Assembly (NCBI GenBank): GCA_943787795.1
Contig: CALSNU010000001.1
Coordinates: forward strand, 288,001 to 352,000
Length of the DNA stretch: 64,000 nt
Direction: 5' to 3'
Source of the DNA: an uncultured bacterium
GTDB lineage: Bacteria; Planctomycetota; UBA1135; GCA-002686595
In this document: positions 19,523-45,633 of the stretch, in pieces
Layout: every line of letters begins with the position of its first letter
Numbering within the stretch: position 1 is the first letter of the stretch
Notes under the pieces: model-generated
What the model was told of the DNA's origin: nothing
The model's input: the letters and a program-made list of their open reading frames with translations, nothing else
Databases searched by the model: none
Program-made: the position numbers and the translations under genes

Positions 19523-21719
19523 TCAGGCCCGCCGCGCGGGCCGCCTGCCGTTGAGCATCCACCCGATCGGCGTCGGGCGGATGAGGAGCGCGTAGGTGAG
19601 GAGCAGCGCCGCGAGGCACGCGGTCACCATGACCCCGAGCTTCTGCCAGGCCGGGAGCTCCCAGCGGGCCACGGCCCCCTGGAGCAGGAAGACCAGGGGC
19701 AGGTGGGCCAGGTAGATCCAGTAGGACGCGTCGGAGAGGTAGCGGACCCAGGCGCGCTCCCGGTGGAAGAGCTTCGCGGAGAGCCCGATCAGGCCGAGGG
19801 TCATGGTCCAGGCGAAGGCGGCCTGCATGACGGCGGGGATGAGCGCCTCGAGCTCCCCGCCCTTGGCGCTCTCAGCAGCGGCCCCCGCGGTGAGGAAGAT
19901 CACGATGGCGACGGCGAGCATCGCCGGCCAGCCGCGGGTGAGGCTGCGGGTGTCCGGGTCGAGGCCGCGGACAGCGGCACCGAACAGGAAGAAGACCCCG
20001 TAGTAGGCGAGCACCAGCGGGTCGAAGGCCAGGGCCGAGGACGTGCTGGGCCCGAAGAAGGTCAGCCCCGCGGTGCAGCATGATCGCCTGGAACGTCGCG
20101 GTCAGGGGGACGACGGCGATGAGGGCCAGGGGGGACACGTAGAGGGCCGAGTTGGACGCGGGGGTCCACCGGGCGGCGATGGCGAACACCGGGAGGCTGA
20201 GCACGAGCAGGCCCATGAGGTACCAGAGGAACCAGAGGTGCCCGAGGTCGAAGTCGGCGAGCTCTTCGAGGAGCCCGCTCCCGGGGGGGCTCGGGTCCAG
20301 GACCTCGACGCTCTCCGACGGAGCGCCGGCGAACACCGCCGCCGTACGGCGGACGCGGTCTGGCATGACGCCCAGGTCCACGTCGTACTGGACGAGGCTG
20401 GCCACGAGCTGCGTGAGCCCCTTGCGCTCGTCGCCCCAGGGCCAGAGGGAGAGCTCCATCGGACTCGTGCCGTCCCGGTTCCGAACCCCCGGGTCGGCGC
20501 CCCGGGCGAGGAGGACCCGGCTGGCCTCCGGAGCGGCCCAGAAGGCGGCGCTGTTCAGGGGCGTGCCCTGGGACCCGTCGCGGATCTCCAGGTCCGCGCC
20601 GAGGTCCAGGAGGAGCTCGCAGACCTCGGGCTGATCCGCGGTCGCGGCCCAGTGCAGGGCGGTGAGCTTGAGGTCGTCCCTGGCGTTCACGTCCTCGCCC
20701 GCGGCGATCAGGGCCTCGACCCGCTCCCGGTCACCGGCTCGGGCCGCCGCCCAGAGGTCGAGCTCCGCGCCGCGGGCGCCTACCTCCGAGCCCCCGGCGA
20801 CGTCCTCGAGGTCAAAGACCGAGGCCGTGGCGCGGACCCGGGCCGGCATGGCGGCGAGGTCCAGATCGAATCGGATGAGCCCTGCGACGAAGGTCGTGGC
20901 CACCAGTCGGTCCTCGGCCCAGGGCCACCTCGCCAGGTCCACCGCGCGGGTGCCGTCCTGGTTGCGGGCCTCCGGGTCCGCGCCGCGGGCCAGGAGGACC
21001 TCGCAGGCCGCCGCGGATCCCCAGAACGCGCCGCTGATGAGGGGCGTCGAGGCGGACCCGTCCCTGGCCTCGAGGTCCGCGCCGAGCTCGACGAGGAGCT
21101 CGCAGGCGGCGGCCTGGTCCTCGGTCGCCGCCCAGTGGAGGGCGGTCAGCTGGAAGTCATCCCTTGCGCTGAGGTCCTGTCCCTCCACGTCGAGCGCCCG
21201 GAGGCGCTGCAGGTCCCCGGCTCGGGCGGCGGACCACAGGTCGCGATTCGAATTCGTCGCCAGGCCCTCGGTCCCCCTCGGAGTCGAGCTCGCCCGGGAG
21301 GCCTCGGGCGCGTAGCGCAGCGCGAGGCCCTCGCCCACGGACCACTTCATCAGGGGGAGGATGGTGAAGCACGCGACGACCATGGGGACCAGGACTCTCC
21401 GGACCCGGTGCGAGATCAGGCCGCGCGCCCCACGCCGCTGCCAGAGCATCACTGCGAAGTAGCCGCTCAAGAGGAAGAAGAGCGGCATGCGGAAGCCGTG
21501 GATGAACGCGAAGAGCCCGGTCATCCCCTCCGTGCGGACCTCGTCGGTGATCGGCCAGGGGATGAACGACAGGGAGAGACACGCGTGGAGCACAACGCCG
21601 AGCGACATGGCGAAGCTCCGGACGGCGTCCAGGTCGTGGCGTCGGACCGATTCGGGGGCCCCGCTCGAGGGCGAGCTGGAGCGCGGGCTGGCGGTCGTGT
21701 CGACGGGGAGGGTCGTCAT
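19523..21719 (-). CDS. Acyltransferase-3 (OpgC/MdoC-like) with an internal ankyrin insert; +1 frameshift near 20065
   Basis: RRHDLDAVRSFAM, FRMPLFFLLSGYF, HLWFLWYL, then SDASYWIYLAHLP in the other frame. Removing one G from cgcggggctg joins ORFs 19872..21842 and 19523..20014. Confidence 0.85.
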
Positions 21720-21917
21720 GTTCGGGATCCGATCGGCTGGGGGCAGGCCCCCTCCACCTTCGCACGGACCGCGCGGGTATTCTCCGCGCGGGCTTCGAAA
21801 CCCCGGCTCAGCTCCCCGTTGGACCGAGCCCGGCCGGCCCACGGGCCGGCCACCCCTGGGCTCCGATGGCAGGGCACCGCGCGGGCCTCGGCCCGATGGG
21901 AGCCCGTTGGGGCCTGT

Positions 21918-28454: not shown

Positions 28455-29474
28455 TCAGTACAGGGTGACCTGGACGGGGAGTGAGAAGTTGGAGACCGGG
28501 AATCCGAGGACCGCGTCGCGGTACCAGCACTGGAAGTGCCAGGTCTCTCCCGACATGGCGGCGACCGGACCGGTCGGCTGGGAGAGTCCCGCGAGGTCAA
28601 GCGCCAGGCTCATCTCACCAGAGGAGGAGGCGGCCTGAGCGGACGCGCTGTAGCGACCGATGGACCCCCCGAGGCAGAGCGTGCCAACCGCGTTCCCGGG
28701 ATTGACGATCTGGTCGATGGTGGTGCTCGTGAGGAAGTAGCCGACCGCCCCGCCGGGCAGGGCGTTGCAGCGGACCTCGAGCTCGTTCCGCAGGATGGAC
28801 GGGCTCCCATCGAGGGAGGTCATTGCGACCTGGCCGGTCTGATTCGCCGCGGCGACGCAATACGACTCGCCCACGGGCGGACAGACCACGGCGATGAAGA
28901 CGCCGGGGCTCCCAACGTCCCCGTTCACGGAGGTGGTCGAGCCCCACGCGTCACCTTCGGCGGCGAGGGTCCAGCGGTAGATGTCGTTCACTCCGAGCCC
29001 GGCGTCGCACCCCTGGCCGCTGACCTCTCGAGCTCGAATCGAACCGGGGAAGTCCTCGTCTCCATAGGCGAGCACGTCCACCGTCGCGCCGGCGGCGTCG
29101 AAGAGGTGGATCTCGTCGTTGCGTCCGAGGGAGGAGATCGCGTTCCCCCCGAGGACCGTGACGGCGCCCAGGCTCCAGCTCGCCACGAAGTTGGCGGCGA
29201 CCCGGTCAGTGACGAGGATGGACTCGCCCGGGTCGATAATCCCGGCGAGGGAGAGGTCATAGGTCCCCGCAATGGCCGACTTGTCGTCGATGCTCCAGTC
29301 CTCGAGATCGACGGGCAGCGAGGACAGGTTGGTGAGCTCGATGAACTCGCCGTCGAGGCCGCTGTACATGTACTCGGTGATCTGGACCTGGCCCGAGGCC
29401 TGGGCCGCGAGGGCGCTGAACGCGATGAACGAGAGTACCGCTGGAGCGGGAGTGAAGCGGAGGGAGAGAGTCAT
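28455..29474 (-). CDS. Secreted lamin-tail-domain (LTD) protein with the shared C-terminal domain
   Basis: Signal peptide; ITEYMY...EFIELTN...VDLEDWSIDD; C-terminal C...NQTG...LCLGGSIGR...GETWHFQCWYRD...SNFS. Confidence 0.85.
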   Translation of the reverse strand: MTLSLRFTPAPAVLSFIAFSALAAQASGQVQITEYMYSGLDGEFIELTNLSSLPVDLEDWSIDDKSAIAGTYDLSLAGIIDPGESILVTDRVAANFVASWSLGAVTVLGGNAISSLGRNDEIHLFDAAGATVDVLAYGDEDFPGSIRAREVSGQGCDAGLGVNDIYRWTLAAEGDAWGSTTSVNGDVGSPGVFIAVVCPPVGESYCVAAANQTGQVAMTSLDGSPSILRNELEVRCNALPGGAVGYFLTSTTIDQIVNPGNAVGTLCLGGSIGRYSASAQAASSSGEMSLALDLAGLSQPTGPVAAMSGETWHFQCWYRDAVLGFPVSNFSLPVQVTLY

Positions 29475-29485
29475 GGAGGAGCAGC

Positions 29486-32055
29486 TCATTCGAAGTTCAC
29501 CGCGAGGCCGTTGGTGAAGTTGGAGACGGGCTGGCCGCCCAGGGAGTCACGGTGCCACAGCTGCCAGTACCACGTCTCGCCAGGCATGGCGGACACGAAG
29601 CCGGTGGGCTGGGGCAGCGCCGTGAGGTCGAGGGTGAGCGCGATCTCGCCAGCGGCGCCCGAGTTCCCGATCTGGCCGGGGCCGACGTAGCGGCCGATGG
29701 GCGCGCCGAGGCAGAGGTTTCCAAGACTGCCTCCGGGGTTCGGCGAGAAGCCGGTGTTGGCGCTCACGAGGAGGTATCCCGTGGAGCCGGTGGGCAGGCT
29801 CGAGGCGACCAGGGTCACGTCGTTGTCCGCTGCCTCGCGGCTGCCGTCGGCGCGCAGCGCCGAGGCCGCTCCCGTCGAGTTGGCGTTCGCGACGCAGAAG
29901 GGCGTCCCGATGCCGCCGCACGGGGCCCCGGTGAAGGAGCCGGGGTTACCGACATCGCCGTTCAGCGAGGTCACCGAGTCCTGATAGTCGCCCTCGAATG
30001 AGAGGGACCACAGCAGAGGATTCTCGGCGCCCCAGTCCATCGGCGCAGACCCACGCGGAGGCTTCGCGCGCCGCGAACGGAACCGGGATAGTCCTCGTCA
30101 CCGTACAGCAGGCGATCCTCGATGGCGCCGGTGTCGTCGAAGACGTAGATCCCGTCGTTTCGGCCGAAGGTGGCGTTGACGTTACCCTCGAGAACGGTCA
30201 CGCCGGTGAGACCCCAGTCGAGCTGGAAGGACGCCGCGGCGCCCTCGGTGATCACGATGGACTCGCCGGGGTCAACGACGCCCGCCGCGGAGAGGTCGAA
30301 GGTGCCGGCGTTCGCGGAGCTGTCGTCGACGCTCCACCCGGTGAGGTCGATCGCGGCGCCGGACGTGTTGGTCAGCTCGACGAACTCGTCGCCGTTGCCG
30401 GAGTACATGTACTCGGTGATGCGGATCCCTGCGCTGCCGAACGGGTAGCTGAAGCCGGCGGGCTTGCCCTCGGCGAACTTTGGGGCGTAGCGCTGACCGC
30501 CCCCGACGCCCAGGGGGGCACCGGCCTCGACGTAGTAGTCGAGGCGGCCGCCAGCGGTCCCGGGGATCGGCAGCTGAGCGCCGAACACGCCGTCGCCAGC
30601 GGCGCCGTCACCGTTGAGGCCGTCGTCGAACATCGGTACCGGGATGTAGCGGCCGATCTCTCGGTAGTAGAGGTTGGCGAAGCCCACCGTCGAGCCAGGG
30701 GTCTGGATCCGCGCGGTGATGAAGGTCGGCGTGCCGACGGTCGGTGCCGCGGGGGTGTGGGCCAGCTCGGTGATCTGCGGTTGGACCTTGGTCAGGTCCG
30801 GCTGGTTCAGCAGGAAGTTGCGCCGCGTCACCAGGTACTGCTCGAGGCCCGGGCAGGGGAGGGTCGAGCCGCCGACGTTCACGAACGTCTGGGTGTTGAA
30901 GTTCGACTGGAACTGGGCGTACGAGTAGAGGCGCTTGGGGTCCGCCAGGACGGCCGCGTCGATGAGCGCCTTGTATCCGAGGAGATCGCCCTGGAGGTCG
31001 GCCCAGCTGAAGTCCTCGAGCATGGTCCGATAGTGCGCGAAGTAGCGTTCCCGCAGGCGCGGGATGGTCATCAGGCGCGAGACCGCCGGCCTGCTGCCGG
31101 CGTTGAAGCGGTAGGTGGGCGACAGGTTCGTGGTGGTGCCGCCGGGCCAACCGAACAGGCTCACGCCCCAGGACTCGTTGCCGTCGTGCTGGTGGAGGTT
31201 GATCCTGTCGTGGAGGGGGTCGTAGTAGACGTTGAAGTCAGCGCCCTTGGAGATGTAGCTGTCCTCGTCCATGAACAGGTTCTCTGCGACCAAGGCCCAG
31301 ATCGCTCCGTCCACGGCGAACTTCTCGTCGATGGCGGCGACGTCGGCGCCTGAGTTGTTCAGGGCGAACGTGCCGTCGATCATCGGCTGCCAGGGCAGGG
31401 CGAGGCCGCCGTTGTCCTTGAGCTGGTAGTTCTGGGCGTACGAGTTCGGGTTGGTGCCGATGTAGCGCAGCGCGTCCTGGCCGGTGGAGATGTTCTGGGC
31501 CTTGTACCGGGCGCCGCCCGATTCCTCGAAGTACTCGTCGAGCAGCTGGGTGTTGTACTGCTGGACGTTGACGTAGACGCCCCAGTTCTCCCCGTTGAGC
31601 CGGAGCTGCACGTGGTTCCCCTGGCCGGCCGGCGTGTACCTGCGGACGAAGCGGAAGAACCCGATCTCACGGCAGAACGTGGGGTCCTCGATCCCGTTGT
31701 TCAGGTTCAGCGTCCTGTAGCCGAGCAGCCGCGCACCGTTGTCGGACTCGGTGATCTCGATGTTGAACGAGGTCTTCTGCGATCCAGGGGGGAGGAAGAA
31801 GAACGACGAGTTGCCCTTCACCCGGATCCCGACCCCAGGGATGGTGACTGGCGTGGGGAGGTCGGGACCCGAGAGGGTCAGGTCCACCACGAGGTTGACT
31901 CCCGTGTTGGCTGTGTTGCGGAGTGTCCCCCAGAAGTTCGTCTGCGGCAGCGTGATGTCGATCGTCCGCAGGACGGTGTCGTCGTAGAGATCAGGCTCCT
32001 GTGCGGGGGCGAGGGGAGCGAGCGCGAGGAGGCCGAGGGCAGCGAGGAGACTCAT
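29486..32055 (-). CDS. Secreted CotH kinase + LTD + shared C-terminal domain; two +1 frameshifts at about 30030-30075
   Basis: IRVKGNSS, LNLNNGIEDPTFCRE, LNGENWGVYVN, DEDSY, HDGNESWG; MFDDGLNGDGAAGDGVF; LTD. Comparison with the 28455 paralog restores the frame. Confidence 0.85.
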
Positions 32056-32344
32056 GGGGGGGGATCCTGGGGGGAGCTTTGGCAGGCCCATCCTACCGCC
32101 TCGTGAACAGGCGTCGCTCCTCGTGACGGACGAGGAGGGGCATGTGATCCACAAGTCCCCTGGAGTCGCACGATGGGACGGTCGACGGTTGCTCTCGAAG
32201 GCCTCCCTGACGAGCCCCAGGGCCAAGCGCGTCACGCGCGCCGCCGACAGGGTCTCTTGCGATCTGCGCGCGGCCAGGCGTTTGCCGGGGCCGGGTGGGT
32301 CCCGTCTTCCCGCGCGCGCGGGCCTCACCCGCGCGCTGAAGGGC

Positions 32345-35300
32345 TCACCGAGGGGGCCGCTGGCCGGGCAGGTTCTGGGAGCCTGGCGTCGGGTTCGCCG
32401 TGGCCGCGAAGTCGCTGCGCCCGTTCGTGGTCCGTGCGAAGCTGTGGTCCCGGCGCAGGTCGGGGATCGAGGTCGAGTCGAAGGGCAGCCCGGAGAGCTC
32501 TCCCGGTCCGAAGAGGCCGAGGAACTCGCCGCTGGCGGACAGTCTGAAGTTGACGTGAGTGGGCCCCTGAGAGCCCTCCTCATCTGCCCAGAACAGCAGG
32601 AATCCACGGGCAGGAATCGTGACGCCGACGGGGATCTCGAACTTGGTCGGGTCGTTCGGGTCGTCCGTCAGGTGGAAGCCTCCGAGGTCCAGCGGCGTAT
32701 CCGTGAGATTCCGCAGCTCGAACCAGTCATCGAAGTCGCCCGCCGCGTCAGCGATCGTGCGGGTGTTGTCGCTCTGCGCCTCGTTGATCCTGACCCGCGT
32801 CCCTGCGCAGTAGGTGCCCGAGAAGGGCGGGCTCCACTCCGATCCCGTCGAAGGCGCGCGCGCGGAGCTGCGAGGTTCCCGCGGGGGAGGATGACCGGTC
32901 CCGTCGCGCGCAGTGGCGACCGGGTTCACGACTCCAAGCGATCCGCGGGGGTCCGATCCGTCGAGCGTGTAGTAGACCGTGCCGGACCCGGAGAGCGTCA
33001 GGCCGGTGCCCGCCCGGTACCTCCCCGGCGCCCTCGACGGGGTGGGGATCGCCGAGATCGAGGGGAAGAGTCGTCGGCGTGGCGGCCGCCAGGAGCTGCT
33101 GGAGGACGCACCTGGCCCGCGGATGGGGAAGTAGTCGTTCAGCAAGCCGGTCCCGCTCAGTCACCCAGTCCGTCAGGTTGTAGCGCCCTGGCGACCTCGA
33201 AGTAGTTGCCCCAGCGGGCGTACTCCATCAGGACGGCGGGGCCCAGCTCCGCCGCGATCGCGGTAGTAGCGGGCCGCGGGGACGTTCCGCTCCGGGAAGG
33301 CGGGGTCGATGACGTTGTCCCCGCTCACGTCGAACCCGGGCTCGACCCAGAAGGTGCCCCGCCCGGCGTGAACATCCGGAGCTGGACCTGGGCTCGATCC
33401 GCGAGCAGCATCCAGATAGTCCGGGGTGGGCGAGGGCCGCCGTGTGAATGAACGCTGCATCGTTCAAGGAGCTGCTGCTCTGGATCCCGGTCCTGTCCCA
33501 GAATCCATCGTTGACGGCCGTAGCGGCGCTACCCCAATAGAGGGTGGCCTCCGCGTCCCAGCTGTGAAAGACGAACCGGCCCTCGGTGTTCACGTCAGAA
33601 GGGTCGCTGGAGTTTCGCGCGTGAGCTGTGGCCATCCAGTTGTTGAAAGGCCAGTCGGTGTTCCCGGCGTACCAGTTCATCAACATGTAGTCCGCGTAGT
33701 TCTCGAGGTCGACTCGCTCTACAAGCGCCTCGAACGCGTCTTCCCCCAAACCACTGTTGCCCGGGTGAGACTCCAGAGATGCAGATGTCGTACACCTCTT
33801 TCCAAAGCCCCGGAGCCGCACTTCCCACAGGGTTGCTGTTCCCGGCGGCTACAACGCCGCGCCGGACCCAGTCGTACTCCTCGGCGTCCCCGCCGCCGTA
33901 GGCGGCAGCGAAGCGCTCGTCCGGTCGCTCGTGCAGGTGGAGCACGCCCCAATACAGGCCATTGAGGTAGAGGTGTACCCAGCGCCCGTGGGGCGAGAGG
34001 TGCCCCATGTCACCGTGGATCGAAGCGGCGAACTCGTCCCGCGTCTCTTGGGCGTGAATCTTCGTCGTCGATCCCGCCGGTGCGTTGATGGAGAGCTGCG
34101 TGCCGCAGTCGAGGATGAGGTAGTCAAAGCGATCCAGCGGCGAGTTGTCGAAGACCTTGTACTCGAGTTTCGATGGGCCGAACTCCGCCTTGAACTTCAG
34201 GGCCATGGACAGCTGGCTGCGGTTGTTGGCGCTAGTGTTGGTGCCTCCCTGAATCCCGACTCCGCAATCGATCTGGAACTCAAGGCCACTCTGAGGGTCT
34301 AGCCACTCGACAGAACACGGCCGTGTCCAGGACTCACCTTCCTCGGAGGAGTTGGCGTAGATACCCACTCGACCAGAGGGAGCCATGAATCCGAAGAGGT
34401 CATCCGGGTGCAACTGGAGCGAGATTGAAGGAAGAGCTCCGAGGCTCTCTTGAACTTGCTCCGGGGTATAGGGGGCCGTGACGAGACTGTCGAGTCCGTA
34501 CCAAGCTCCCGGCCGTGTGCCGCCCCGGTCCCAGTTCGCACCGGACTGGTCGATCCACTCCGCAGGGAGATTGCGCCCGAGCGCTGTGTTGATCGTCTGG
34601 TCTTCCACTGACGCCGGAAAGATCCAGCTCCCGGTGGTTACGGGCGAGGGTAGAGAGCCTGCTTCGAAGGCACGGGCCCTCAGCGTCGTCGTACCGGCGA
34701 TCTGCAGTGGCCCGGTGTAGATCGCATCCTGGTTGGAGGGCTCTCTACCGTCGAGCGTGTAGCGGATGGTGGAGGCGGGGCTCGCGTGCTGCAGGCCCAG
34801 GACCAGAGGATCCGATTCAAGCCCCGGCGGAATTGAGAAGGTCACTGGCGCCAGGATGGAGCCGCCGCCAACCCCGTTTGCGGCACCGGGGGTGGGGGGG
34901 TCGAAGAAGGAGAGCGTGACGAGGTCGCTCTCGTACCCGTACGAGATGTCGGCTGTCTGGGCCGGGTAGGCCGGGGTGAATCGCGTAGAGGCCAGGCCCG
35001 CTGGGCTCACGAGCGCGAGGTACTCACCGCCTGTGGAGAGACGGAAGTTGGTGTGAAGCGGCTGCCCGGCCACTGTGCGATCCTTGTCAGAGGCGAACAC
35101 CACCACGTAGCCGCCAGGGGGAAGGACCTCGGCCGGGAGGGCCCACTTCGAGGGATCTCCCGCGTCATCGGTGAGGCGCCAGCCACCGAGGTCTACCGGG
35201 ACAGCTGAAGGGTTGTGGATCTCAATCCAATCCGAGCGGTCCCCGTCCTCGTCTCTGATCCCACCCTCGTTGTTCGCAAGGAACTCGGTGAGGATCGGTT

Positions 35301-35379
35301 GCTGCGCAGAGACAGAACCAGGAGTGCTGGCAAGGGCTACGAGTCCGGCAATGATTGCGTGGGAGCGCAGGAGTAGCAC
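32345..35379 (-). CDS. Secreted LTD / FN3-chitobiase / CotH kinase / LTD protein with many single-base insertions
   Basis: SDWIEIHN (LTD), IRYTLDGREP, HLYLNGLYWGVLHLHERPD, GNTDWPFNNW, SWDAE, EYARWG, VYYTLDGSDPR, DDWFELRN, found across ORFs 33595..35379, 33228..33821, 33173..33460 and 32345..33145. Confidence 0.8.
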
Positions 35380-35431
35380 GACAGTGAAATCGGGTGGGGC
35401 CTGGAGAGAAAACGAGACGCCGGCTTGGGAC

Positions 35432-35480
35432 GTTGTTAAAAGCCCGTTGCCTCAATTCAATATACAGATAAAAATAGACG
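35432..35480. promoter_or_regulatory. AT-rich divergent promoter region between the CotH and VTC operons
   Basis: ttgttaaaa...ttgcctcaattcaatatacagataaaaat is strikingly AT-rich for this window. TTGCCT-16 bp-TAAAAA faces the VTC gene. Confidence 0.55.
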
Positions 35481-35510
35481 CTCGGCTTCCGACCATGGAG
35501 CCGCGCCGCT

Positions 35511-36308
35511 ATGTCCCAAAACGACCGCACTCTCACCTCTCGATACGAGTGGAAGTACTTCGTCCCGGCGAGCATTCTGCCGTCGATTCGAGCCATGGTG
35601 CAGCCGTTTGTGAGGCCGGATCACTTCGCGCGCCAACACGCTGACCGGCGCTACCCCATCGTCAGCCTCTACCTCGATGGGGACGGGCTGGAGCTGTATC
35701 GGACGACGGTCGAGGGGCACCGCAACCGCTTCAAGCTCCGGGTGCGCGCCTACGACGATGACCCCAACTCGCCGGTCTTCCTCGAGGTCAAGAAGCGCTC
35801 GAACGTGGTGGTCCGCAAGACCCGCGCGAGGGTCTCGCGCGAGGTCGCGGAGGCGGTGCTCAGCGGTCGCCCCGCGCCCCTTTCGGAGGTGGAGGGGGCC
35901 AGCGAGTTCGCCCTGCGGCTTGGCGACCTCGGTGCCCGCCCCCTGGTCCGCGTGCGCTACATGCGGGAGGCCTACGAGTCAGTCCACGGTGATCCGGTCC
36001 GGTTCACGATCGACACCGAGGTCGAGCACGCCATGACCGCGACGAACAACCTCGCGCTCGAGGCGCACCGCGACTGGGAGAAGACCCCGACCGAGGGTGC
36101 CATCGTCGAGCTGAAGTTCTCCGAGCAGTGTCCGTCGTGGGCGACGCGGCTCATCGATCAGCTGGAGATCAACCGGGAGTCGATCCCGAAGTACGTGCTC
36201 TCGCTGGATCATGCGATGGAGCAGGGGCGGCTGTCTCGCCCTCGCCGAACGCAGCTACGACATGCTCTGAGCGAGGCGCGCCGGCCCCTCCGACTCCCCA
36301 ATGCCTGA
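35511..36308 (+). CDS. VTC-domain (polyphosphate polymerase-like, CYTH/TTM fold) protein
   Basis: RYEWKY, SLYLD, RFKLRVRAY, FLEVKKR, YMREAY, RFTID, IVELKF, PKY. Confidence 0.9.
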   Translation: MSQNDRTLTSRYEWKYFVPASILPSIRAMVQPFVRPDHFARQHADRRYPIVSLYLDGDGLELYRTTVEGHRNRFKLRVRAYDDDPNSPVFLEVKKRSNVVVRKTRARVSREVAEAVLSGRPAPLSEVEGASEFALRLGDLGARPLVRVRYMREAYESVHGDPVRFTIDTEVEHAMTATNNLALEAHRDWEKTPTEGAIVELKFSEQCPSWATRLIDQLEINRESIPKYVLSLDHAMEQGRLSRPRRTQLRHALSEARRPLRLPNA

Positions 36309-37017
36309 GCTCCGTTCGGCCATCGATAGCCTCGTCGCGGGCGGGAGCGCGGGGTCCGCGGGCGTGTCCGCCCTGCTCGCTTCCCTGATGATCGCGGCCT
36401 TCATCGGTCTGGCGGTGGCCTGGGTCTATCAACGCACGCACCACGGGCTCTCGTACTCCCGCGGCTTCACCCAGTCGCTGGTGGTCCTGACCATGGGCGC
36501 GACGCTGCTGATCTTCGTGATCGGTGACAGCTTGGTGACCGCCTTCGGGTTGCTGGGTGCGCTCGCGATCGTCCGCTTCCGCAACGTCCTCAAGGACACC
36601 CGGGACACGGTCTTCGTGTTCTTCTCGCTTGTGCTCGGGATGGCGGCCGGCACCCAGCGCTACGGCATCGCGCTCGTGGGCGGTGCGGTGCTCATGTCGG
36701 TGGTGACTTACCTGCACCTCGTGGCCTTCGGGTCGAAGACCCGCTTTGACGGCCACGTCACCTACGCGGTGAAGCGAGGTGAAGGTGGTGGTGAGGATTG
36801 GAAGGCGGCGCTCGCGCGGATTGATGAGGTCCTCGGGCGATTCTGCCGTGGCATCGAGATGATGACCTCCCATGACTCGGACGAGAGTGTGGAGGTGGTC
36901 TCGGCGGTGAGGCTGCGTGACCCCGAGCGCGGGAGCGAGATGATCGAGTACCTTCGTGCCACGCCCGGCGTGGTCGAGGCTAGCCTCGTGCTCCGTGACC
37001 GCTACGCCGAGCTCTGA
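36301..37017 (+). CDS. DUF4956 family membrane protein
   Basis: SYSRGFTQSL, AFGLLGALAIVRFR..LKDTRD, GMAAG; about four TM helices plus a soluble C-terminal domain; overlaps the VTC gene. Confidence 0.88.
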   Translation: MPELRSAIDSLVAGGSAGSAGVSALLASLMIAAFIGLAVAWVYQRTHHGLSYSRGFTQSLVVLTMGATLLIFVIGDSLVTAFGLLGALAIVRFRNVLKDTRDTVFVFFSLVLGMAAGTQRYGIALVGGAVLMSVVTYLHLVAFGSKTRFDGHVTYAVKRGEGGGEDWKAALARIDEVLGRFCRGIEMMTSHDSDESVEVVSAVRLRDPERGSEMIEYLRATPGVVEASLVLRDRYAEL

Positions 37018-37029
37018 TCACTCGACGCC

Positions 37030-38325
37030 ATGGAGATCCAGGAGCCACCGTCCGCCGACCAGGCGATGCCGCCGCTGCCGAAGCGTGTCCCCACGCCCAT
37101 CGGACTTCGACTGCGGGACTTCATGCGAGGCCCCGGACAGTTCTTCGTCTGGATCGGGCTGGGTCTGGCCGGGCTGTGGGCCGCTGGAACGGCGGCGCCC
37201 ACGCCGCAGCTCGTCGGCATCGTGAAGTCCACGGAGGTGGCCCACGCCTTCTCTCAGCCAGGACGGGTCGCGTCGGTCGCCGTGCAGGAGGGCGACGTCG
37301 TGGGCCTGGGCGATACGATCGCGCGGCTCGAGAGCGCGCCGCTGGAGGCCCAGCTGGAGGTCGCTGGAGGGCAGCTCGCGGCGGTGCTGGCGGATGTCAC
37401 CTCACTCGCGGCGTCCCAGACCCTCGCCAGCGCCGAGCGCCTGCTGGCGAACGGCGACAACACCACCACGCTGACCCAGGACGGCGAGGCCAACCGCAGC
37501 CGGGTCAGGGACGAGGTGTGGCGGCTCCAGATTGAGGCCCGGGACCGCCGGCTCGCGATCCTCGCCCTTGAGGTCGAGATCGAGCGTGACCTGCTCAAGG
37601 CCGACCAGGTCCGGGTGCAGGCCGAGCGTCTCACGCCTCTGGTGGATCAAGGGTTCGGCCGCGCCGCCGAGCAGCAGGACTTCGAGCTGGCGGAGCGCAC
37701 CCTGCTTGGACAGGTGGCGGCCAACCGCAACCTGCTCAGCGCCCAGGAGGAGGAGCGCGCCGCCGCCGATGCCAGCCTCGAGCGGGCCCGCGCGATCCTC
37801 GAGGGGCTCCAGGCGCCGACGCCGTCGGTCGCGGCCCGTGAGGCGGTGGAGCTCGCGGCGCGTGCCGCCGACGACGCGGCGATCGCCGCGCTGCAGCAGC
37901 GCGTGGACGTCCGCCGGGCCGAGCTCGGGGCGCTGCGGCTCGAGCAGGCGGGCCTGACCCTCACGGCGACCATCGCGGGCCGAGTCGGGCTCGTGGAGGC
38001 ACACCCCGGCCAAGCGCTCCTCGCGGGCGCGCTGGTCGCGCGGATTGAAGCCGGCGACGCGCGCAACGTGACGGTCTTCCTCCCCGAACCCATGGCTGCA
38101 GAGGGCGAGGCGCCGGAGGTGGTGCTGCTCTCACGCCGCGCATCCCCGGCTGAGCTCGCGGCGGCGGAGGTGGTCGGGTATGGCCGCGGTGTCGAGGAGC
38201 TCCCGGTTCGCCTGTGGCGCCAGCCTCAGGTCCCGGAGTACGGGCGCACGCTGATCGTGCGTCCGCCGGAGTCCCTGGCGTTGGTGCCCGGCGAGGTGCT
38301 GGGCGTCCGCCTCGAGCGGCCCTGA
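37030..38325 (+). CDS. HlyD-family membrane fusion (periplasmic adaptor) protein
   Basis: N-terminal TM; lipoyl halves GRVASVAVQEGDVV..GD.IARL and LTATIAGRV...GQ around a long coiled coil; ends LVPGE. Confidence 0.8.
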   Translation: MEIQEPPSADQAMPPLPKRVPTPIGLRLRDFMRGPGQFFVWIGLGLAGLWAAGTAAPTPQLVGIVKSTEVAHAFSQPGRVASVAVQEGDVVGLGDTIARLESAPLEAQLEVAGGQLAAVLADVTSLAASQTLASAERLLANGDNTTTLTQDGEANRSRVRDEVWRLQIEARDRRLAILALEVEIERDLLKADQVRVQAERLTPLVDQGFGRAAEQQDFELAERTLLGQVAANRNLLSAQEEERAAADASLERARAILEGLQAPTPSVAAREAVELAARAADDAAIAALQQRVDVRRAELGALRLEQAGLTLTATIAGRVGLVEAHPGQALLAGALVARIEAGDARNVTVFLPEPMAAEGEAPEVVLLSRRASPAELAAAEVVGYGRGVEELPVRLWRQPQVPEYGRTLIVRPPESLALVPGEVLGVRLERP

Positions 38326-38531: not shown

Positions 38532-39338
38532 TCAGTGCGCTTCCGGCGAGGAGGGCCCGCTGCCGAGGCGTCGGTAGCTCATTGGATCGGCACGCAGGAC
38601 CTCGAGGTCGCCGAGCCGCGACAGGGTGCCTGAGATCTCCACCGGCTCGGCGACCATGTGGAGGATGCGGTCGTTGACCGCGCCGCCGTCCGCGTCGACC
38701 AGCAGGACATACCTGGCGGTCCCGTCGGGTCGTCGGACCATCAGCACCGGCGGCACCCCGCCGCTGATGCAGCGCGTGGCGCAGGCCCGGTGCACCTTGA
38801 GGTTCCCGGGCTTCATGACGCCGAGGTAGCACTTCGAGTCGACGATCTCGCCCCGCAGAGTGGCGGCCGTCGTGGTCAGCGGCGTGGGGTCGGCGAGGAC
38901 CGCCTCACCGAGATCCACCAGGGACTCGGGGAGGAGCTCGACCATCGTGACCCCGTCGCGGTCGATCAGCGTCCCCGTGAGGCGGACGCGATGGCCAGCG
39001 AGGTGACCCACGGCGGAGTCAGCCCCACGCTTGCCGAAGACGGTGAGGAGCCAGCGGGAGGTGGGGGCGACCTGAGTGCGCTCGGCGCCCGGCCGGTCGA
39101 CGATGAGCATCGGGTAGGGGGAGAGCTCGACCTGGCCCTCGAAGGACCGCTCCACCCCGAACTCGAACCTCGACGCGCCGAAGGGGGCCTGGGTCGCCGC
39201 GATCACTGACGCGAGGCCCAGGGAGATCAGGAGCACGGCGATCACGCGCCCGCGAACGAAGCGCGCCAGCCCCGGCGCCGCCTTGCCTTGCCAGCCGATA
39301 TAGAAGGCCTCGGCGTTGGTCTCGGGTGACTCGCTCAT
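38532..39338 (-). CDS. Membrane-anchored hypothetical protein with a Cys/His motif
   Basis: FYIGW, one TM helix, then GEIVDSKCYLGVMKPG..KVHRACATRCISGG. Confidence 0.75.
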   Translation of the reverse strand: MSESPETNAEAFYIGWQGKAAPGLARFVRGRVIAVLLISLGLASVIAATQAPFGASRFEFGVERSFEGQVELSPYPMLIVDRPGAERTQVAPTSRWLLTVFGKRGADSAVGHLAGHRVRLTGTLIDRDGVTMVELLPESLVDLGEAVLADPTPLTTTAATLRGEIVDSKCYLGVMKPGNLKVHRACATRCISGGVPPVLMVRRPDGTARYVLLVDADGGAVNDRILHMVAEPVEISGTLSRLGDLEVLRADPMSYRRLGSGPSSPEAH

Positions 39339-39342
39339 GGGA

Positions 39343-40407
39343 TCAGGCCGGGACCGAGCCGGCCGGGGTGATGGAGACGGGATCGGTCTCGGTGCCCAGG
39401 GGCAGCGGCCGTGGGTCGAGCAGCACGCGTCCGTCCTGGATTCGAAGTTTGAAGGTCGGCACGCGCTCGTCGAAGGGCTCGGGGGAGGTGCCGCACTTCG
39501 GTCGGTACTGGAACCCGTGCCACGGGCACACCACGAGGCCGTCGACCACGCGCCCCTCGCCGAGGGGGCCATTCTGGTGCTGGCAGACGCTGGAGAGCGC
39601 GGATAGATGGCCCTTGGATCGGAAGATCGCGACGCGGTCACCGGCGGCGACCACGACCTTGGCTCGGCCTTCGGGGATCTCGTCCACGCCACAGGCGTCC
39701 ACCCATCTCTCCTCTTGGAGGGCGCCTTCATCATTGTCCCGGTGATCGCGGCTGGCCTCGGTACGGGCGGCGAGCACGTGCAGGGTGCCGAGCCAGGCGG
39801 CTCCCAGGGCAAGCGCGGCGGGGGTGGCCATCCCGGAGTGGGTCTGGAGGGAGCCGAGGGCCACGTGCAGGAGGATCAGGGCGTAGGCCACGTAGACCAG
39901 CATGTGCAGGGCCTTCCAGGTCGGCGCCGACAGGTTCCGCAGCCAGAAGTCATGGCTCGTCGCGGCCATGATCACGAGGATCACCAGGGCCATGGCACCC
40001 AGTGGCTGGAAGGGGAACTGGGCGACGCTGTCCACGCGGGTGTTCGAAGTGAACAGGCTCACGATCGGGTTCACGTCGCCGAAGGCGTGGAACTGGAGCG
40101 TGGAGAAGCCGCCGTGCAGGAAGGCGAGGGTCGCCATCGTCACGCCCAGGTGCCTGCGGTTGTAGAGCAGCGGCAGCCACCTGGGATCACGGCGCGCGAG
40201 CGGCCCGATGCTGAGGATGATGTGCAGCAGCACGAGCGCCGAGGTACCGAGCCCGCGGATCAGCAGGGTCTCGACCGTGGCCTCGGGGTGAACCGCCGCT
40301 GACACGGCGATGAAGGACACGAGATAGAGGATCACGCCGCCGACGATGAGCCGGTCGTAGAGCTTCTTCTGCGGGTTCCACTGAACGGCCTGGTAGGTGT
40401 GCCCCAT
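39343..40407 (-). CDS. Ferric-reductase-like (MsrQ-type) cytochrome b fused to a C-terminal Rieske [2Fe-2S] domain
   Basis: RRHLGV, FLHG, WKALHMLVY, LLHV (haem His candidates); CQHQNGPL...CPWHG. Confidence 0.88.
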   Translation of the reverse strand: MGHTYQAVQWNPQKKLYDRLIVGGVILYLVSFIAVSAAVHPEATVETLLIRGLGTSALVLLHIILSIGPLARRDPRWLPLLYNRRHLGVTMATLAFLHGGFSTLQFHAFGDVNPIVSLFTSNTRVDSVAQFPFQPLGAMALVILVIMAATSHDFWLRNLSAPTWKALHMLVYVAYALILLHVALGSLQTHSGMATPAALALGAAWLGTLHVLAARTEASRDHRDNDEGALQEERWVDACGVDEIPEGRAKVVVAAGDRVAIFRSKGHLSALSSVCQHQNGPLGEGRVVDGLVVCPWHGFQYRPKCGTSPEPFDERVPTFKLRIQDGRVLLDPRPLPLGTETDPVSITPAGSVPA

Positions 40408-40409
40408 GG

Positions 40410-40901
40410 TCAGCGTCCCTCCGCCGTCGATGCGGCCAGTGCGAGGCTGCCAAGGACACGCTGTTGACCGAGGCTGAAGATGATCAGCTGCGTCCCGTGC
40501 GGGGCCGCCAGCGTGAGCTTGCTGGCTCCGAGGGGCGCCACCGAGCCGAGGAGTCGGGCGTCGGCCGGGAGGGCGGGGTCCTGTGATCCAGGCAGGGCGA
40601 GCGCCGCGGAGCTGGTATAGGCGAGGATGTCCGCCGCCTCGAGGCGCGTCCCGGCCATGAGCCACAGGACCTGCCGCCCATCCTGAAGGGGGAGCAGCGC
40701 GGCGCGCAGGCCATCAACGCCCGGGACGGGTCTTGCTGCGGAGGTCGCGTCCGGGGGCGCAGCGAGCACAGAGTCCCGACCGCCTCCAGCGTCCACGAAC
40801 GCGTCGGGTTGGACCCATACGCCAACCATGACGCTGGCGACCGCGGCGGCGAAGCTCGCCGGAGCCAGCCAGCGGTGGCGGCGGCGGAGGGGCTCGATCA
40901 T
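40410..40901 (-). CDS. Hypothetical membrane-anchored protein
   Basis: MIEPLRRRHR followed by a TM helix; ATGA-coupled to the upstream gene; ARLLG and LIIFSL motifs. Confidence 0.65.
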   Translation of the reverse strand: MIEPLRRRHRWLAPASFAAAVASVMVGVWVQPDAFVDAGGGRDSVLAAPPDATSAARPVPGVDGLRAALLPLQDGRQVLWLMAGTRLEAADILAYTSSAALALPGSQDPALPADARLLGSVAPLGASKLTLAAPHGTQLIIFSLGQQRVLGSLALAASTAEGR

Positions 40902-41164
40902 GCCTCGGCCTCCACCTTGCGCTGTGCCGCGCACTTGTGGGGCGTTCGCTCCTCCGAGGGCTGGGCGCCGTTCGCCCAGCGACGGGCGAGGATCGGCCAC
41001 AGCAGCGCGGCCCCAGGCATCACGAGCAGGCGAAAGCCCCACGTGGCGCCCCTTGCGTCGGGGTCGATCTTCCCGGCACCCACAAGCGCAAAGGGGATCG
41101 CGAAGGCCGCGCCGAGGGCCAGATAGAGGCCAGTGACGGATACGAGGACTTCGACGGTGGTCAT
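40898..41164 (-). CDS. Small two-TM hypothetical protein
   Basis: YLALGAAFAIPF...KIDPDARGATWGFRLLVMPG..LLWP; first gene of a tightly coupled four-gene run. Confidence 0.7.
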   Translation of the reverse strand: MTTVEVLVSVTGLYLALGAAFAIPFALVGAGKIDPDARGATWGFRLLVMPGAALLWPILARRWANGAQPSEERTPHKCAAQRKVEAEA

Positions 41165-41822
41165 GGCCAGACGAGGGGGTCAAGTCGGCGGGAAGGAGTC
41201 GAGGAGTGTAGGGGGCCGGCCCGGGCGCTGGAAAGACCGACCGGGCGGTCGTTGTCGACGTCGCCCTACGCCGCCGTCGCGGCACGCTGGTGGCTCCGGG
41301 ATTTCGGCCCCGGTGGATACCTCCAGGGGGCCGAGGTCACCCTCTCAGGCCGTCGACGGACCTCGTGTCCGGTCGGCCGGCGCCTCCGCCCTCGTGATCT
41401 CCCCGGACGGCGCAGCCCAATTCGAAGGCCAGCGGCCATGAGGCGGGGGGGGGGCGAGGAGCACTCCGAGGATCAGCGCTCGAAGGAGGCGGCGGCTCTC
41501 GCGCGTGGGGTCAGCGGACCTCAGGTCCGGATCGTAGCGGGAGGAGCTCTGCGTCCCGCGCGGCCGAGGTCCAATCAGCCGAGGCGCTCAGCGCTGGCGA
41601 GCGCCTGGTGGGGAACGAACAGCGACCCCCTTCACCTGCCTGTTGTTCAAAGAAATTGAGGGCTGAATCGGTGCAGGTGTGGGAGCCGTCGTTCAACACG
41701 AGGAGCCGTGCGGCGAACGGGAGCGAACGCAGATACGAGACTTCCTGCCCATCGAGCGCTCCCGCAGCCTCCATCCGGATTCCTGTCGCAAGCCCCGCCA
41801 AGGCTGGAGCGGGTCGCGGCAC

Positions 41823-43704: not shown

Positions 43705-45633
43705 CTACTGGAAGAGCAGCGAGCTCGCGTTCGTGAAGTTGAGTCCGCCGGACTGCGGCAGGTCTCGGTGCGCGAACTGCGCGTACCAGGTGGTGCCGGG
43801 CAAGACCCCTCCGCCGGCGATAGGCAGCTGCGCGATATCGATGAGCTCGACGGCGGCGCCGTCGGCGCTCGTGGTCTGAATCCCAAGCCGGATCAGGTTG
43901 CCGCTGAGGCAGAGGACGCCGCCGCCGAGCGGCGTCATCTGGGAGGCGTCTGCGAGAACGAAGAGGCCAGCGGAGCTGGGAGGGAGGCGCCGTGCGTGCA
44001 GCTCAAGGTCGTCCTCGCTCACCCGGGTCGACCCGAGGGCGAAGAGCTCACCGGCGCTCCCGGTTGAGTTCGAGAGGGAGCCGCAGCTGAACGCCTCCCG
44101 CGACACGAGGTCGATCGAGTCGATCCATCCGGCGCCGTTCGGGATTCCGACCCCGAACGCCGCGGCGTGGTCTGGGTGGACGGCGACGCCGTCGCACCAG
44201 GGGAACCACCCGGGCAGGCCGGAGTCGACCTCGAGGCGTGCTTGGAGGGTCCTCACGTCCACGACGAGGTATCGATTCGACGACGCGACGACGGCGTAGG
44301 CACCGTCCGGAGTCAGGTCGACGTCCACGGGCCAGCCCTCGATCTGGTCCGTGAAGATCGGCGTCGGGGCCGGCCCCGCGGTGAGGTCATAGAGCCGCAG
44401 ACGCGTGGTCTCGCCGGACGGCGCGATCACCGCGGCGAGCTCATTGGTGCAGACCACCGAGTCGAGCCCGGCGTAGATCCCGGAGTGTGTGGCCGGGAAC
44501 GGGCGAGAGTTCGTGATCGAGAGCCCGCCGCCGCCTGTCGGGAGGTTCCCGAGGTTGAACTCGTAGATCCTCCGGCCGGTCTGGACGAGCAGCGTCTCAC
44601 CGTCCGGCGTCACCGTCAGGTCGCGCGGCGAACCGGTCAGCAGGGCGAACCAGTTCGTCCCACCGTGGTCTTGAACGTTGAGGTACCCGCCAGCGGTGCT
44701 CGGGCCGCCCAGGGTGATCGTCGCCCATACGCTGTCCGTCATGACCACCGTGTCGAAGGCCGTCTCGAGGTACGGCCCGGTCGGGCCAGGGAAGCTCGTG
44801 ACGCGCCGGACGATCTGGGTGTTCGTTCCATCAAGTCGGATGAGCGCGACCTCGTCCTCGGCGCGGACCGTCGCGTACTGACCGTCCGGTGAGACGGCGA
44901 CGTCCATCGGGCGACCGGCGAGCTGGTCGAGCGGGAGGGTGTCCAGCACGACGCGTGGTCCGCCGCCGGCGGGCGGGACCAGCTCGACCACGAGGACCGA
45001 CGTGTCGCCACTGTTGGGGTCGATGGAGAGGGAGACCCCGTGGTCCGCAGTGACGGCGACCATGTCGTTCCCAAGCTCGGCGTTGATGCCCGGCGGCTCC
45101 GAAGGTTCGTTCAGCAGGATCGCGCCGCCCGCCAGGTCAATCACGAACGTCCCGCTCGCTCCTGTTCCGCCGAAACGCGAGCCGCCTCGGACGACGGCGA
45201 GCCTCCCGTCGGGCGTCAGTTCGACGTCACGGGGCCGGAACCCGCAGTCGATCTCGGTGATCAGCGTGGGAGGCGTCGTGGTCAGGTCGATCAGCTGAGC
45301 CTGCGAGCCGAGCGTCAGCGCCCGCACGTTGGAGACGGCGACGGCGTCGTTCGCCGGGCCCGAGCCGCCCACCAGTAGCGACGCGGGGGTGGAGTAGACG
45401 AGCTGCCCCGTCTCGAGCTCGACGATGAAGGTCACCGTGGCGCTGGCGGTGGTCCGACCGATCGCATAGCGGCCGTCCGGTGTGATCTCAACGTCGTCGA
45501 CCCCGAGGTTCGAGCGGTCCGCGAAGGAGGTGAACTGTGCCAACGCCGGCGTCGATAGCAGGGCTCCGACCGGGAGCGCGAACGCGACCCCGAGCGGGCG
45601 GAGGGTCCTGGGGAGCAGCTCGGAGAGCCTCAT
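43705..45633 (-). CDS. Secreted beta-propeller (YncE-like) with the shared C-terminal domain
   Basis: Signal peptide; repeated PRDV.LTPDG-type blades; C-terminal C..NSTG...LCLSG...GTTWYAQFAHRD...NFTN. Confidence 0.8.
   Translation of the reverse strand: MRLSELLPRTLRPLGVAFALPVGALLSTPALAQFTSFADRSNLGVDDVEITPDGRYAIGRTTASATVTFIVELETGQLVYSTPASLLVGGSGPANDAVAVSNVRALTLGSQAQLIDLTTTPPTLITEIDCGFRPRDVELTPDGRLAVVRGGSRFGGTGASGTFVIDLAGGAILLNEPSEPPGINAELGNDMVAVTADHGVSLSIDPNSGDTSVLVVELVPPAGGGPRVVLDTLPLDQLAGRPMDVAVSPDGQYATVRAEDEVALIRLDGTNTQIVRRVTSFPGPTGPYLETAFDTVVMTDSVWATITLGGPSTAGGYLNVQDHGGTNWFALLTGSPRDLTVTPDGETLLVQTGRRIYEFNLGNLPTGGGGLSITNSRPFPATHSGIYAGLDSVVCTNELAAVIAPSGETTRLRLYDLTAGPAPTPIFTDQIEGWPVDVDLTPDGAYAVVASSNRYLVVDVRTLQARLEVDSGLPGWFPWCDGVAVHPDHAAAFGVGIPNGAGWIDSIDLVSREAFSCGSLSNSTGSAGELFALGSTRVSEDDLELHARRLPPSSAGLFVLADASQMTPLGGGVLCLSGNLIRLGIQTTSADGAAVELIDIAQLPIAGGGVLPGTTWYAQFAHRDLPQSGGLNFTNASSLLFQ

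Follow-up and report, generated by a model that had tools for sequence, protein, structure and literature searches.

How can a kinase that lies outside the cytoplasm be supplied with a phosphoryl donor? The question is raised by a locus of an uncultured planctomycete of the UBA1135 lineage. The stretch analysed here (the window) comprises 64,000 nucleotides, positions 288,001 to 352,000 of contig CALSNU010000001.1 (assembly GCA_943787795.1). In it, genes for secreted-type proteins with CotH kinase domains stand divergently to genes for a VTC protein, a DUF4956 membrane protein and a HlyD-type adaptor. The module is real, tightly conserved, unexplained, and made of known parts. The reading ranked ahead of all rivals, a tentative one, is synthesis-coupled export of polyphosphate (polyP) serving the secreted CotH kinases. 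Six genes had been picked out in an earlier note on the sequence; their identities and positions are confirmed by Pfam and by coordinates.

35511 to 36308, forward strand: VTC protein, a stand-alone TTM tunnel of 265 amino acids (PF09359, E 4e-32)
36301 to 37017, forward strand: DUF4956 inner-membrane protein of 238 amino acids (PF16316, E 5e-12)
37030 to 38325, forward strand: HlyD/EmrA-type periplasmic adaptor (membrane-fusion protein) of 431 amino acids (HlyD_3, E 1.5e-6)
35380 to 35510, no strand: divergent intergenic region of 131 bp, 54% guanine plus cytosine (GC)
32345 to 35379, reverse strand: CotH1, with signal-like N-terminus, LTD, Fn3-associated, CotH kinase, Fn3-associated and LTD domains
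29486 to 32055, reverse strand: CotH2, with signal-like N-terminus, CotH kinase, choice-of-anchor-X repeat, LTD and a C-terminal domain found genome-wide
28455 to 29489, reverse strand: LTD-only gene, secreted-type, with the C-terminal domain of CotH2 and without a kinase domain

The VTC and DUF4956 genes overlap by 8 bp, and a gap of 12 bp separates DUF4956 from the adaptor gene. A hydrophobic, signal-peptide-like N-terminus is seen by eye on all three reverse-strand products. The three core genes very probably serve one process.

Association of VTC, DUF4956 and CotH

The association of VTC with CotH is far beyond chance. Among 121 genomes of Planctomycetota scored with Pfam families, CotH is present in 26 of the 30 that have VTC and in 3 of the 91 that do not (Fisher p 5e-19). 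This and the other p-values are overstated because related genomes are not independent; in addition, the centre genomes of the sample were picked for VTC and the genomes are incomplete. All three families occur together in 26 genomes, VTC with DUF4956 in 2, VTC alone in 2, DUF4956 with CotH in 1, CotH alone in 2, and none in 88; about a quarter of the sampled planctomycete genomes thus have the module. In Acidobacteriota, CotH is found in 12 of 14 genomes with VTC and in 7 of 137 without it (G370 is one of the 7). The phylum of genome G122 is sparser: VTC is present in 5 of 101 genomes and CotH in 2, both of which have VTC. VTC and DUF4956 are found in the same 3 of 14 control genomes, those of the tractable hosts Corynebacterium glutamicum, Bacteroides thetaiotaomicron and Methanosarcina acetivorans, as genome-level presence rather than adjacency. 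CotH is found in those 3 and in Bacillus subtilis, which has neither of the other families. The expectation that CotH keeps company with VTC and DUF4956 across genomes is therefore well founded.

At the level of loci, the phylum sample covers 40 of the 42 VTC places outside the source genome; the two omitted are a split match in G047 and a partial match in G079. Profile hidden Markov models (HMMs) built for this work place DUF4956 within 4 kb of VTC at 32 of the 40 loci, CotH within the stretch (up to 20 kb) at 24 and the adaptor at 12. Pfam adds one DUF4956 gene missed by our HMM (L039), for a total of 33. The 80 closest GTDB loci, which were chosen by similarity and of which 3 duplicate the phylum sample, have DUF4956 in all 80 cases, the adaptor in 74, CotH in 27 and a TolC-family gene in 25. 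Pairwise distances of VTC and DUF4956 are strongly correlated (r 0.93).

One or two VTC loci per genome are accompanied by up to 16 dispersed CotH matches (G098), which fits a diffusible product or co-substrate acting in trans. The source genome itself contains a second VTC-DUF4956-CotH unit, without the adaptor (contig C4:714796-718805; L010:9608-16768). The CotH protein of this unit combines an N-terminal anchor with a beta-helix and shows a histidine at the column of the catalytic aspartate; its gene is preceded by genes for a TPR protein and a metallophosphoesterase. A further lone CotH on contig C2 matches the Bacillus CotH fold (E 1e-7). In the two of six plasmid-collection matches that were viewed, which are Firmicutes examples of the triad, the adaptor is absent and glycosyltransferase genes lie around it. 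At two loci where no CotH gene adjoins VTC, Cthe_2159 carbohydrate-binding proteins follow it (L037:10368-12143, L138:2800-4539).

The presence of PPK1 is independent of VTC: it is found in 17 of 30 planctomycete genomes with VTC and in 54 of 91 without it. VTC as a replacement for PPK1 is rejected on these counts, and it is not simply a storage polymerase standing in for PPK1.

The triad is already in print. The genes cotH, PPP and DUF4956 are listed as accessory genes of Gram-positive pel loci in the legends to Figs S4-S5 of 10.1101/768473, and the same triad is reported as SIR_1592-1594 of Streptococcus intermedius (PMC12345266) and in NELoc-2 of Clostridium perfringens (PMC2879425). In their passages on the triad, these three papers mention CotH as a secreted protein, a domain of the polyP-polymerase type, and a membrane protein with MgtC and ACT domains; no export or polyP-donor mechanism is proposed in those passages. 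The genetics of S. intermedius, considered below, does not suit a simple linear pathway. The window locus resembles the Gram-positive cassette in that the same three families are adjacent, but it is a diderm locus with a HlyD adaptor. No pel or glycosyltransferase families are found among the scanned flanking proteins or the conserved neighbours of the window module. In its account of the triad, PMC12345266 states that it does not occur outside the pel locus; the loci described here show that it does. The distribution of VTC has been treated for eukaryotes (PMC10657179, in the part concerned). A literature search, judged from its listings and with poor coverage of subscription journals, found no paper on the HlyD/TolC extension, and none that proposes export or polyP as a donor for CotH.

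Enzyme, membrane protein, adaptor and kinases

The VTC protein was likened in the earlier note to yeast Vtc4. By fold and by active-site residues it is closer to Vtc4 than to the hydrolytic TTMs. It is a single domain by Pfam, and SPX is absent. The AlphaFold model has a predicted local distance difference test score of 88.6; its top ten Foldseek matches are all entries of the VTC complex (best 3g3r, E 4e-14), with other TTMs at E values of at least 2e-7, and when the PDB is searched with a profile, VTC subunits alone come up below E 0.2. Nine residues are given as critical in the relevant part of 10.1101/2023.01.27.525886: K200, R264, R266, K281, Y359, R361, E426, S457 and K458. Eight are kept in the window protein, all save S457, as K15, R77, R79, K94, Y150, R152, E200 and K227 respectively. 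The mapped residues are invariant in 103 homologs, except for K15 (102 of 103). Also conserved are the basic residues that line the exit path in Vtc4 (R196, K294, R296, R373, K428).

Hydrolytic TTMs are marked by an acidic patch, and AtTTM3 resembles Vtc4 yet is a hydrolase (PMC4641920, passages on TTM proteins). Three of the four patch residues of AtTTM3 (E2, E4 and E171 of E2/E4/E90/E171) can be mapped by motif spacing. E2 corresponds to R11 (97 of 103 homologs) and E171 to K202 (103 of 103), both basic as in Vtc4, and E4 is retained as E13. The residue pattern suggests that the VTC protein is probably a polymerase rather than a hydrolase. A deep VTC lineage (L025, L035, L036, L042, L049) has a dTMP-kinase-like P-loop protein of 470-590 amino acids beside VTC. 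An OprO/OprP-like porin accompanies it at 4 of the 5 loci, and at 3 of the 5 the CotH genes form arrays of 3-5; that the P-loop protein is a polyP-using nucleotide kinase is a guess.

The DUF4956 protein is predicted to have five membrane helices and a C-terminal ACT domain. R92 and R94 occur without exception in the 103 homologs, and K98, D99, R101 and D102 are conserved by charge class in at least 95%. This basic motif lies at the end of helix 3 and is placed on the cytoplasmic side, a topology inferred from a cytoplasmic ACT domain; in logic it may resemble the basic vestibule of the yeast channel, without homology. MgtC (PF02308) is matched at E<=0.05 by 73 of the 103 members, weakly (best E 9e-7); the window protein itself has no match at this threshold. 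The fold matches the C-terminal domains of MgtC (2lqj and 7qa5, Z about 8), in searches that are dominated by the ACT domain and scarcely probe the membrane bundle. DUF4956 resembles MgtC/SapB proteins in combining a membrane bundle with an ACT domain, but has its own invariant basic motif and is nearly always paired with VTC. The earlier note had taken DUF4956 for the split-off channel of VTC. Since the family is MgtC-like and none of the 103 homologs matches DUF202, the VTC membrane domain, at E<=0.05, this claim lacks support in the form given there, and a split VTC is on this sequence evidence an analogy only. No natural VTC-DUF4956 fusion is found; the search among longer proteins, which is weak evidence on this point, gives only four eukaryote-type VTC subunits with SPX and/or DUF202, of which the two named ones are fungal. 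An apparent fusion in L083 is discarded, as its frame crosses an N.

The module and the yeast VTC complex (Vtc4/Vtc3/Vtc1; 3g3q, 3g3r, 7ytj, 8i6v) share the tunnel fold, the triphosphate and metal residues, the tight pairing of the enzyme with a small multi-helix membrane protein and, as proposed here, synthesis-coupled translocation. However, the window module lacks SPX and the DUF202 three-helix channel, its membrane partner resembles MgtC and bears an ACT domain, and in the enzyme E13 is retained and the S457 position varies. It also adds a periplasmic adaptor and, in related loci, often TolC. We infer that the module may work like the yeast complex; it is not a member of it.

The adaptor gene belongs to a dedicated, VTC-specific subfamily in the genomes searched. 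When up to 16 candidates are scored in each of 121 genomes, each of the 13 matches of at least 173 bits belongs to a VTC-DUF4956 locus, whereas 9 others reach no more than 121 bits. The best solved relatives of its profile are an RND adaptor, EmrA, MexJ, MacA, LipC and HlyD; it falls below the curated NCBIfam cut-offs and is assigned to no named subfamily. In a VTC tree of 126 tips, the 84 adaptor-bearing tips fall in one clade of 90 (support 0.97). A second VTC lineage (L135) has a DUF4956-adaptor-TolC-VTC cassette with two CotH genes. As in the tripartite exporters HlyBD-TolC, EmrAB-TolC and MacAB-TolC, the adaptor has an N-terminal anchor, lipoyl halves, a long hairpin and a beta-barrel, and in a large subclade of VTC loci a TolC-family gene, which the earlier note had not seen, lies directly behind it. 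Of the 70 loci that leave room for it (1.5 kb or more), 25 show this arrangement, or 27 when another TolC type following the adaptor in L017 and L020 is counted. The window module differs from those exporters in having neither TolC nor a conserved pump: no ABC, RND or MFS pump is present at the window locus or conserved in 123 loci, and an ABC cluster is seen in 6 of the 123.

Other exits have been considered. The source genome has a TolC-adaptor-ABC-MacB operon (C5:11934-17600; L134:8082-13594), the TolC of which scores 307 bits against the VTC-linked TolC subfamily (the next scores 37). As a dedicated TolC the gene (C5:11934-13727) is ruled out, since it heads that operon; as a shared exit for the module it is possible. 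A secretin gene follows the adaptor at six loci (L100, L109, L110, L124, L126, L131), and it is doubtful as an alternative exit since five of the six are on the opposite strand. DUF3616/phytase-like beta-propellers lie beside the cassette at L013, L021, L022, L105, L108-L110 and L126, and one is fused to the adaptor in L135:5730-7634.

The CotH proteins have the PF08757 domain and share the kinase fold and both catalytic aspartate columns with Bacillus CotH (5jd9/5jda) and with cellulosomal CotH; the window proteins differ from Bacillus CotH in being signal-bearing and multi-domain. Columns were assigned to residues by motif through the 5jd9 alignment (D228 and D251 of B. subtilis CotH). Among 73 CotH domains encoded at these loci, the aspartate equivalent to D228 is kept in 65 and that equivalent to D251 in 71; histidine stands at the D228 column in 7, including the C4 copy. 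CotH2 keeps all five kinase columns (R, G, K, D, D). CotH1 was assessed on its intact ortholog in L055, in which both catalytic aspartates are kept and the beta3 lysine column is Q. A crude signal-peptide count gives 54 of 72 CotH frames; this figure lacks a control and is not taken as proof.

As the window sequence stands, both CotH genes have broken frames, and codon-position GC changes frame several times within them. The closest relatives (L053-L055) have the same arrangement with intact genes, CotH1 of about 1000 and CotH2 of 855 amino acids. By comparison with these, the part of CotH1 from 32840 to 33750 has about 14 extra bases that nothing compensates; in CotH2 the extra bases number 2 and lie near 30030 and 30071. 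Three DNA runs yield contigs that match the window elsewhere and omit the extra bases: those at 30030 and 30071 are absent from independent contigs of runs X3 and X6, and the X1 contig across 32774-33746 aligns with 31 gaps, whereas the other seven listed X1 pieces have only 0-1 differences. We read the frame breaks as assembly errors, since independent contigs drop the extra bases and the genes of relatives are intact; on the same grounds, pseudogenes are ruled out.

Flanking and regulatory features

The divergent gap is indeed 131 bp long, in agreement with the earlier note, but it is AT-rich only relative to the window (54% against 70% GC, within the lowest 0.2% of 131-bp windows). The element CAATATAC at 35458-35465 is common to 6 of 7 aligned loci and is likely a -10-type promoter element. 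A scan of the gap for the sigma-70 consensus gives zero sites, and a promoter and terminator scan of the locus gives nothing that exceeds shuffled sequence. RNA-library contigs (run X17) span parts of the VTC, DUF4956, adaptor and CotH2 genes; contigs alone cannot demonstrate transcription. The 24 listed sequencing runs are labelled marine or seawater metagenome.

The LTD-only gene is present only in the closest relatives and is probably accessory to the module. The C-terminal domain of about 130 amino acids that it shares with CotH2 and with other signal-bearing proteins has no Pfam match; 98 of its 100 matches in the genome end within 12 amino acids of the stop. It is a candidate lineage-specific sorting signal. 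Copies are located as follows.

28455-28870, 29486-29900 and 43705-44100 of the window, and genome-wide: copies of the C-terminal domain of about 130 amino acids

Convergent on the adaptor gene are a ferric-reductase-like/Rieske fusion and small partner genes (window 38532-41300); the fusion lies outside the module, since it is present in L055 but replaced in L053. An acyltransferase-like membrane gene at 19523-21842, with an ankyrin-like insert recognised by eye, has a seemingly shifted frame, probably also an assembly error.

Proposed polyphosphate export and competing explanations

The proposed mechanism is as follows. In the cytoplasm, the Vtc4-like tunnel enzyme would build polyP from ATP and feed the chain into a membrane oligomer predicted for DUF4956; the cytoplasmic basic motif would draw the chain in and polymerisation would drive its passage, as no ABC, RND or MFS pump is conserved in the cassette. 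Passage of the product across the inner membrane by way of DUF4956 is probable, if only just. The HlyD-type adaptor would then carry polyP across the periplasm. No outer-membrane channel is present at the window locus, so either a channel would be borrowed in trans or delivery would end in the periplasm. Outside the cytoplasm, with no obvious ATP supply, the secreted CotH kinases would use exported polyP as phosphoryl donor; direct use of the polymer is a plausible step that falls somewhat short of probable. The acceptors may be surface glycans or proteins, as suggested by the LTD, Fn3 and beta-helix appendages and by the glycosyltransferase neighbours in Firmicutes. The complete version, a widespread pump-less prokaryotic machine in which polymerisation drives polyP outwards by way of a channel derived from MgtC, extended in diderms by a HlyD/TolC duct, to feed polyP-dependent CotH kinases, is doubtful as a whole.

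It should be noted that several observations weigh against export of polyP to CotH. At the level of genomes, 7 of 19 Acidobacteriota with CotH show no VTC. In the enzyme, S457 of Vtc4 is P226 (Ser in 57 of 103 homologs), 102 of 103 homologs keep E13, which is the second Glu in the ExExK motif of TTMs and corresponds to a Thr in Vtc4, and the K458-equivalent lysine also occurs in the hydrolase AtTTM3 and is not diagnostic (PMC4641920, passages on AtTTM3). The DUF4956 helices have no basic residue deep inside the membrane in the alignment of homologs, and the DUF202 count is nil. The adaptor is missing from 28 of the 40 loci in the phylum sample, although all 40 are diderm. All 25 TolC-bearing tips fall within one subclade of 35, the subclade of the window has zero adjacent TolC genes, and the nearest TolC in the source genome heads a MacAB-type ABC operon. 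B. subtilis CotH is a spore-coat kinase that uses ATP (PMC7821199, passages on CotH). In the parts of PMC12345266 on the accessory genes of S. intermedius, Pel goes up in the DUF4956 deletion and down in the CotH deletion, and no decrease in aggregation is reported for the VTC deletion; these phenotypes speak against a strictly linear pathway, in that species at least. In the same parts, all four accessory deletions still aggregate, and the DUF4956 and CotH deletions show a loss of more than 50% in sputum medium.

The strongest rival, itself unlikely, is a regulatory module: the MgtC-like DUF4956 protein would be a sensor through its ACT domain, VTC would make or remove a cytoplasmic phosphate signal, and together with surface CotH they would tune exopolysaccharide or envelope assembly, with no polymer crossing the membrane. 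It accords with the MgtC matches (73 of 103) and ACT fold, the opposite Pel changes without a reported VTC phenotype in S. intermedius (PMC12345266, as above), and the placing of the triad within glycosyltransferase clusters in Firmicutes. However, it leaves unexplained why two VTC lineages have a dedicated adaptor and TolC in tight translational packing after DUF4956, and why the full triphosphate-binding set of Vtc4 is invariant.

Somewhat less likely is the same export geometry with other cargo, ATP or a short oligophosphate (PPPi), for CotH kinases of the ATP type; VTC would be a nucleotide-binding gate or short-chain synthase. The canonical kinase columns of CotH, the use of ATP by the B. 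subtilis enzyme, the retained E13 and the absence from DUF4956 of basic rings within the membrane such as the yeast channel has all agree with this, but ATP export would need no polymerase-type tunnel, and the conserved basic exit path (R196, K294, R296, R373, K428) suggests a growing chain. The donor of CotH, ATP or polyP, is not distinguished by sequence.

Inward scavenging of phosphorus is a little less likely again. External polyP or oligophosphate would be taken up, and VTC would run in reverse (polyP and ADP to ATP) or hydrolyse. The habitat is marine and phosphatase-type neighbours recur: purple acid phosphatase/metallophosphoesterase (L010, L053), PhoD (L078), pyrophosphatase (L016), and DUF3616/phytase-like proteins at 11 loci (clusters 19 and 25), with the adaptor fusion in L135. 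The adaptor-less loci L025, L035, L036 and L042 have the OprO/OprP-like porin, a lead, and the dTMP-kinase-like protein. However, where such systems have been characterised, ducts of adaptor and TolC serve export; two of the three mapped positions of the hydrolase acidic patch are basic in the VTC protein; and import leaves the kinases as the tightest partners unexplained. Least likely is export of polyP as a surface material (for cation chelation or matrix cross-linking) that CotH binds or anchors without a donor role, which suits the degenerate columns of some CotH domains (7 of 73, the C4 copy among them, have His at the D228 column, and CotH1 has Gln in place of the beta3 Lys) and the aggregation phenotypes in the same parts of PMC12345266 but not the retention of both catalytic aspartates in most domains (65 and 71 of 73).

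Synthesis-coupled polyP export to secreted CotH kinases, if true, would be an ATP-free phosphorylation system outside the cytoplasm, and the module would be an analogue of the eukaryotic VTC complex, possibly a relative of its ancestor. New from the window are the TolC-less, adaptor-bearing form, the counts of CotH dependence on VTC, and the frameshift correction. Bacteria are generally held to make their polyP with PPK1/PPK2 and to keep it in the cytoplasm (PMC4641920, introduction); a Vtc4-type polymerase active in bacteria and joined to an exit duct would be a third route to polyP and would create an extracytoplasmic pool. Extracellular CotH proteins of cellulosomes and pel operons are described as functionally undefined or unexpected in sections of papers of 2025 (PMC12484212, PMC12774918), and the same mechanism would explain how extracellular CotH is fuelled in biofilms and cellulosomes. 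The near-obligate link with VTC and DUF4956 makes the question of the CotH donor assayable, and the module may bear on marine phosphorus cycling.

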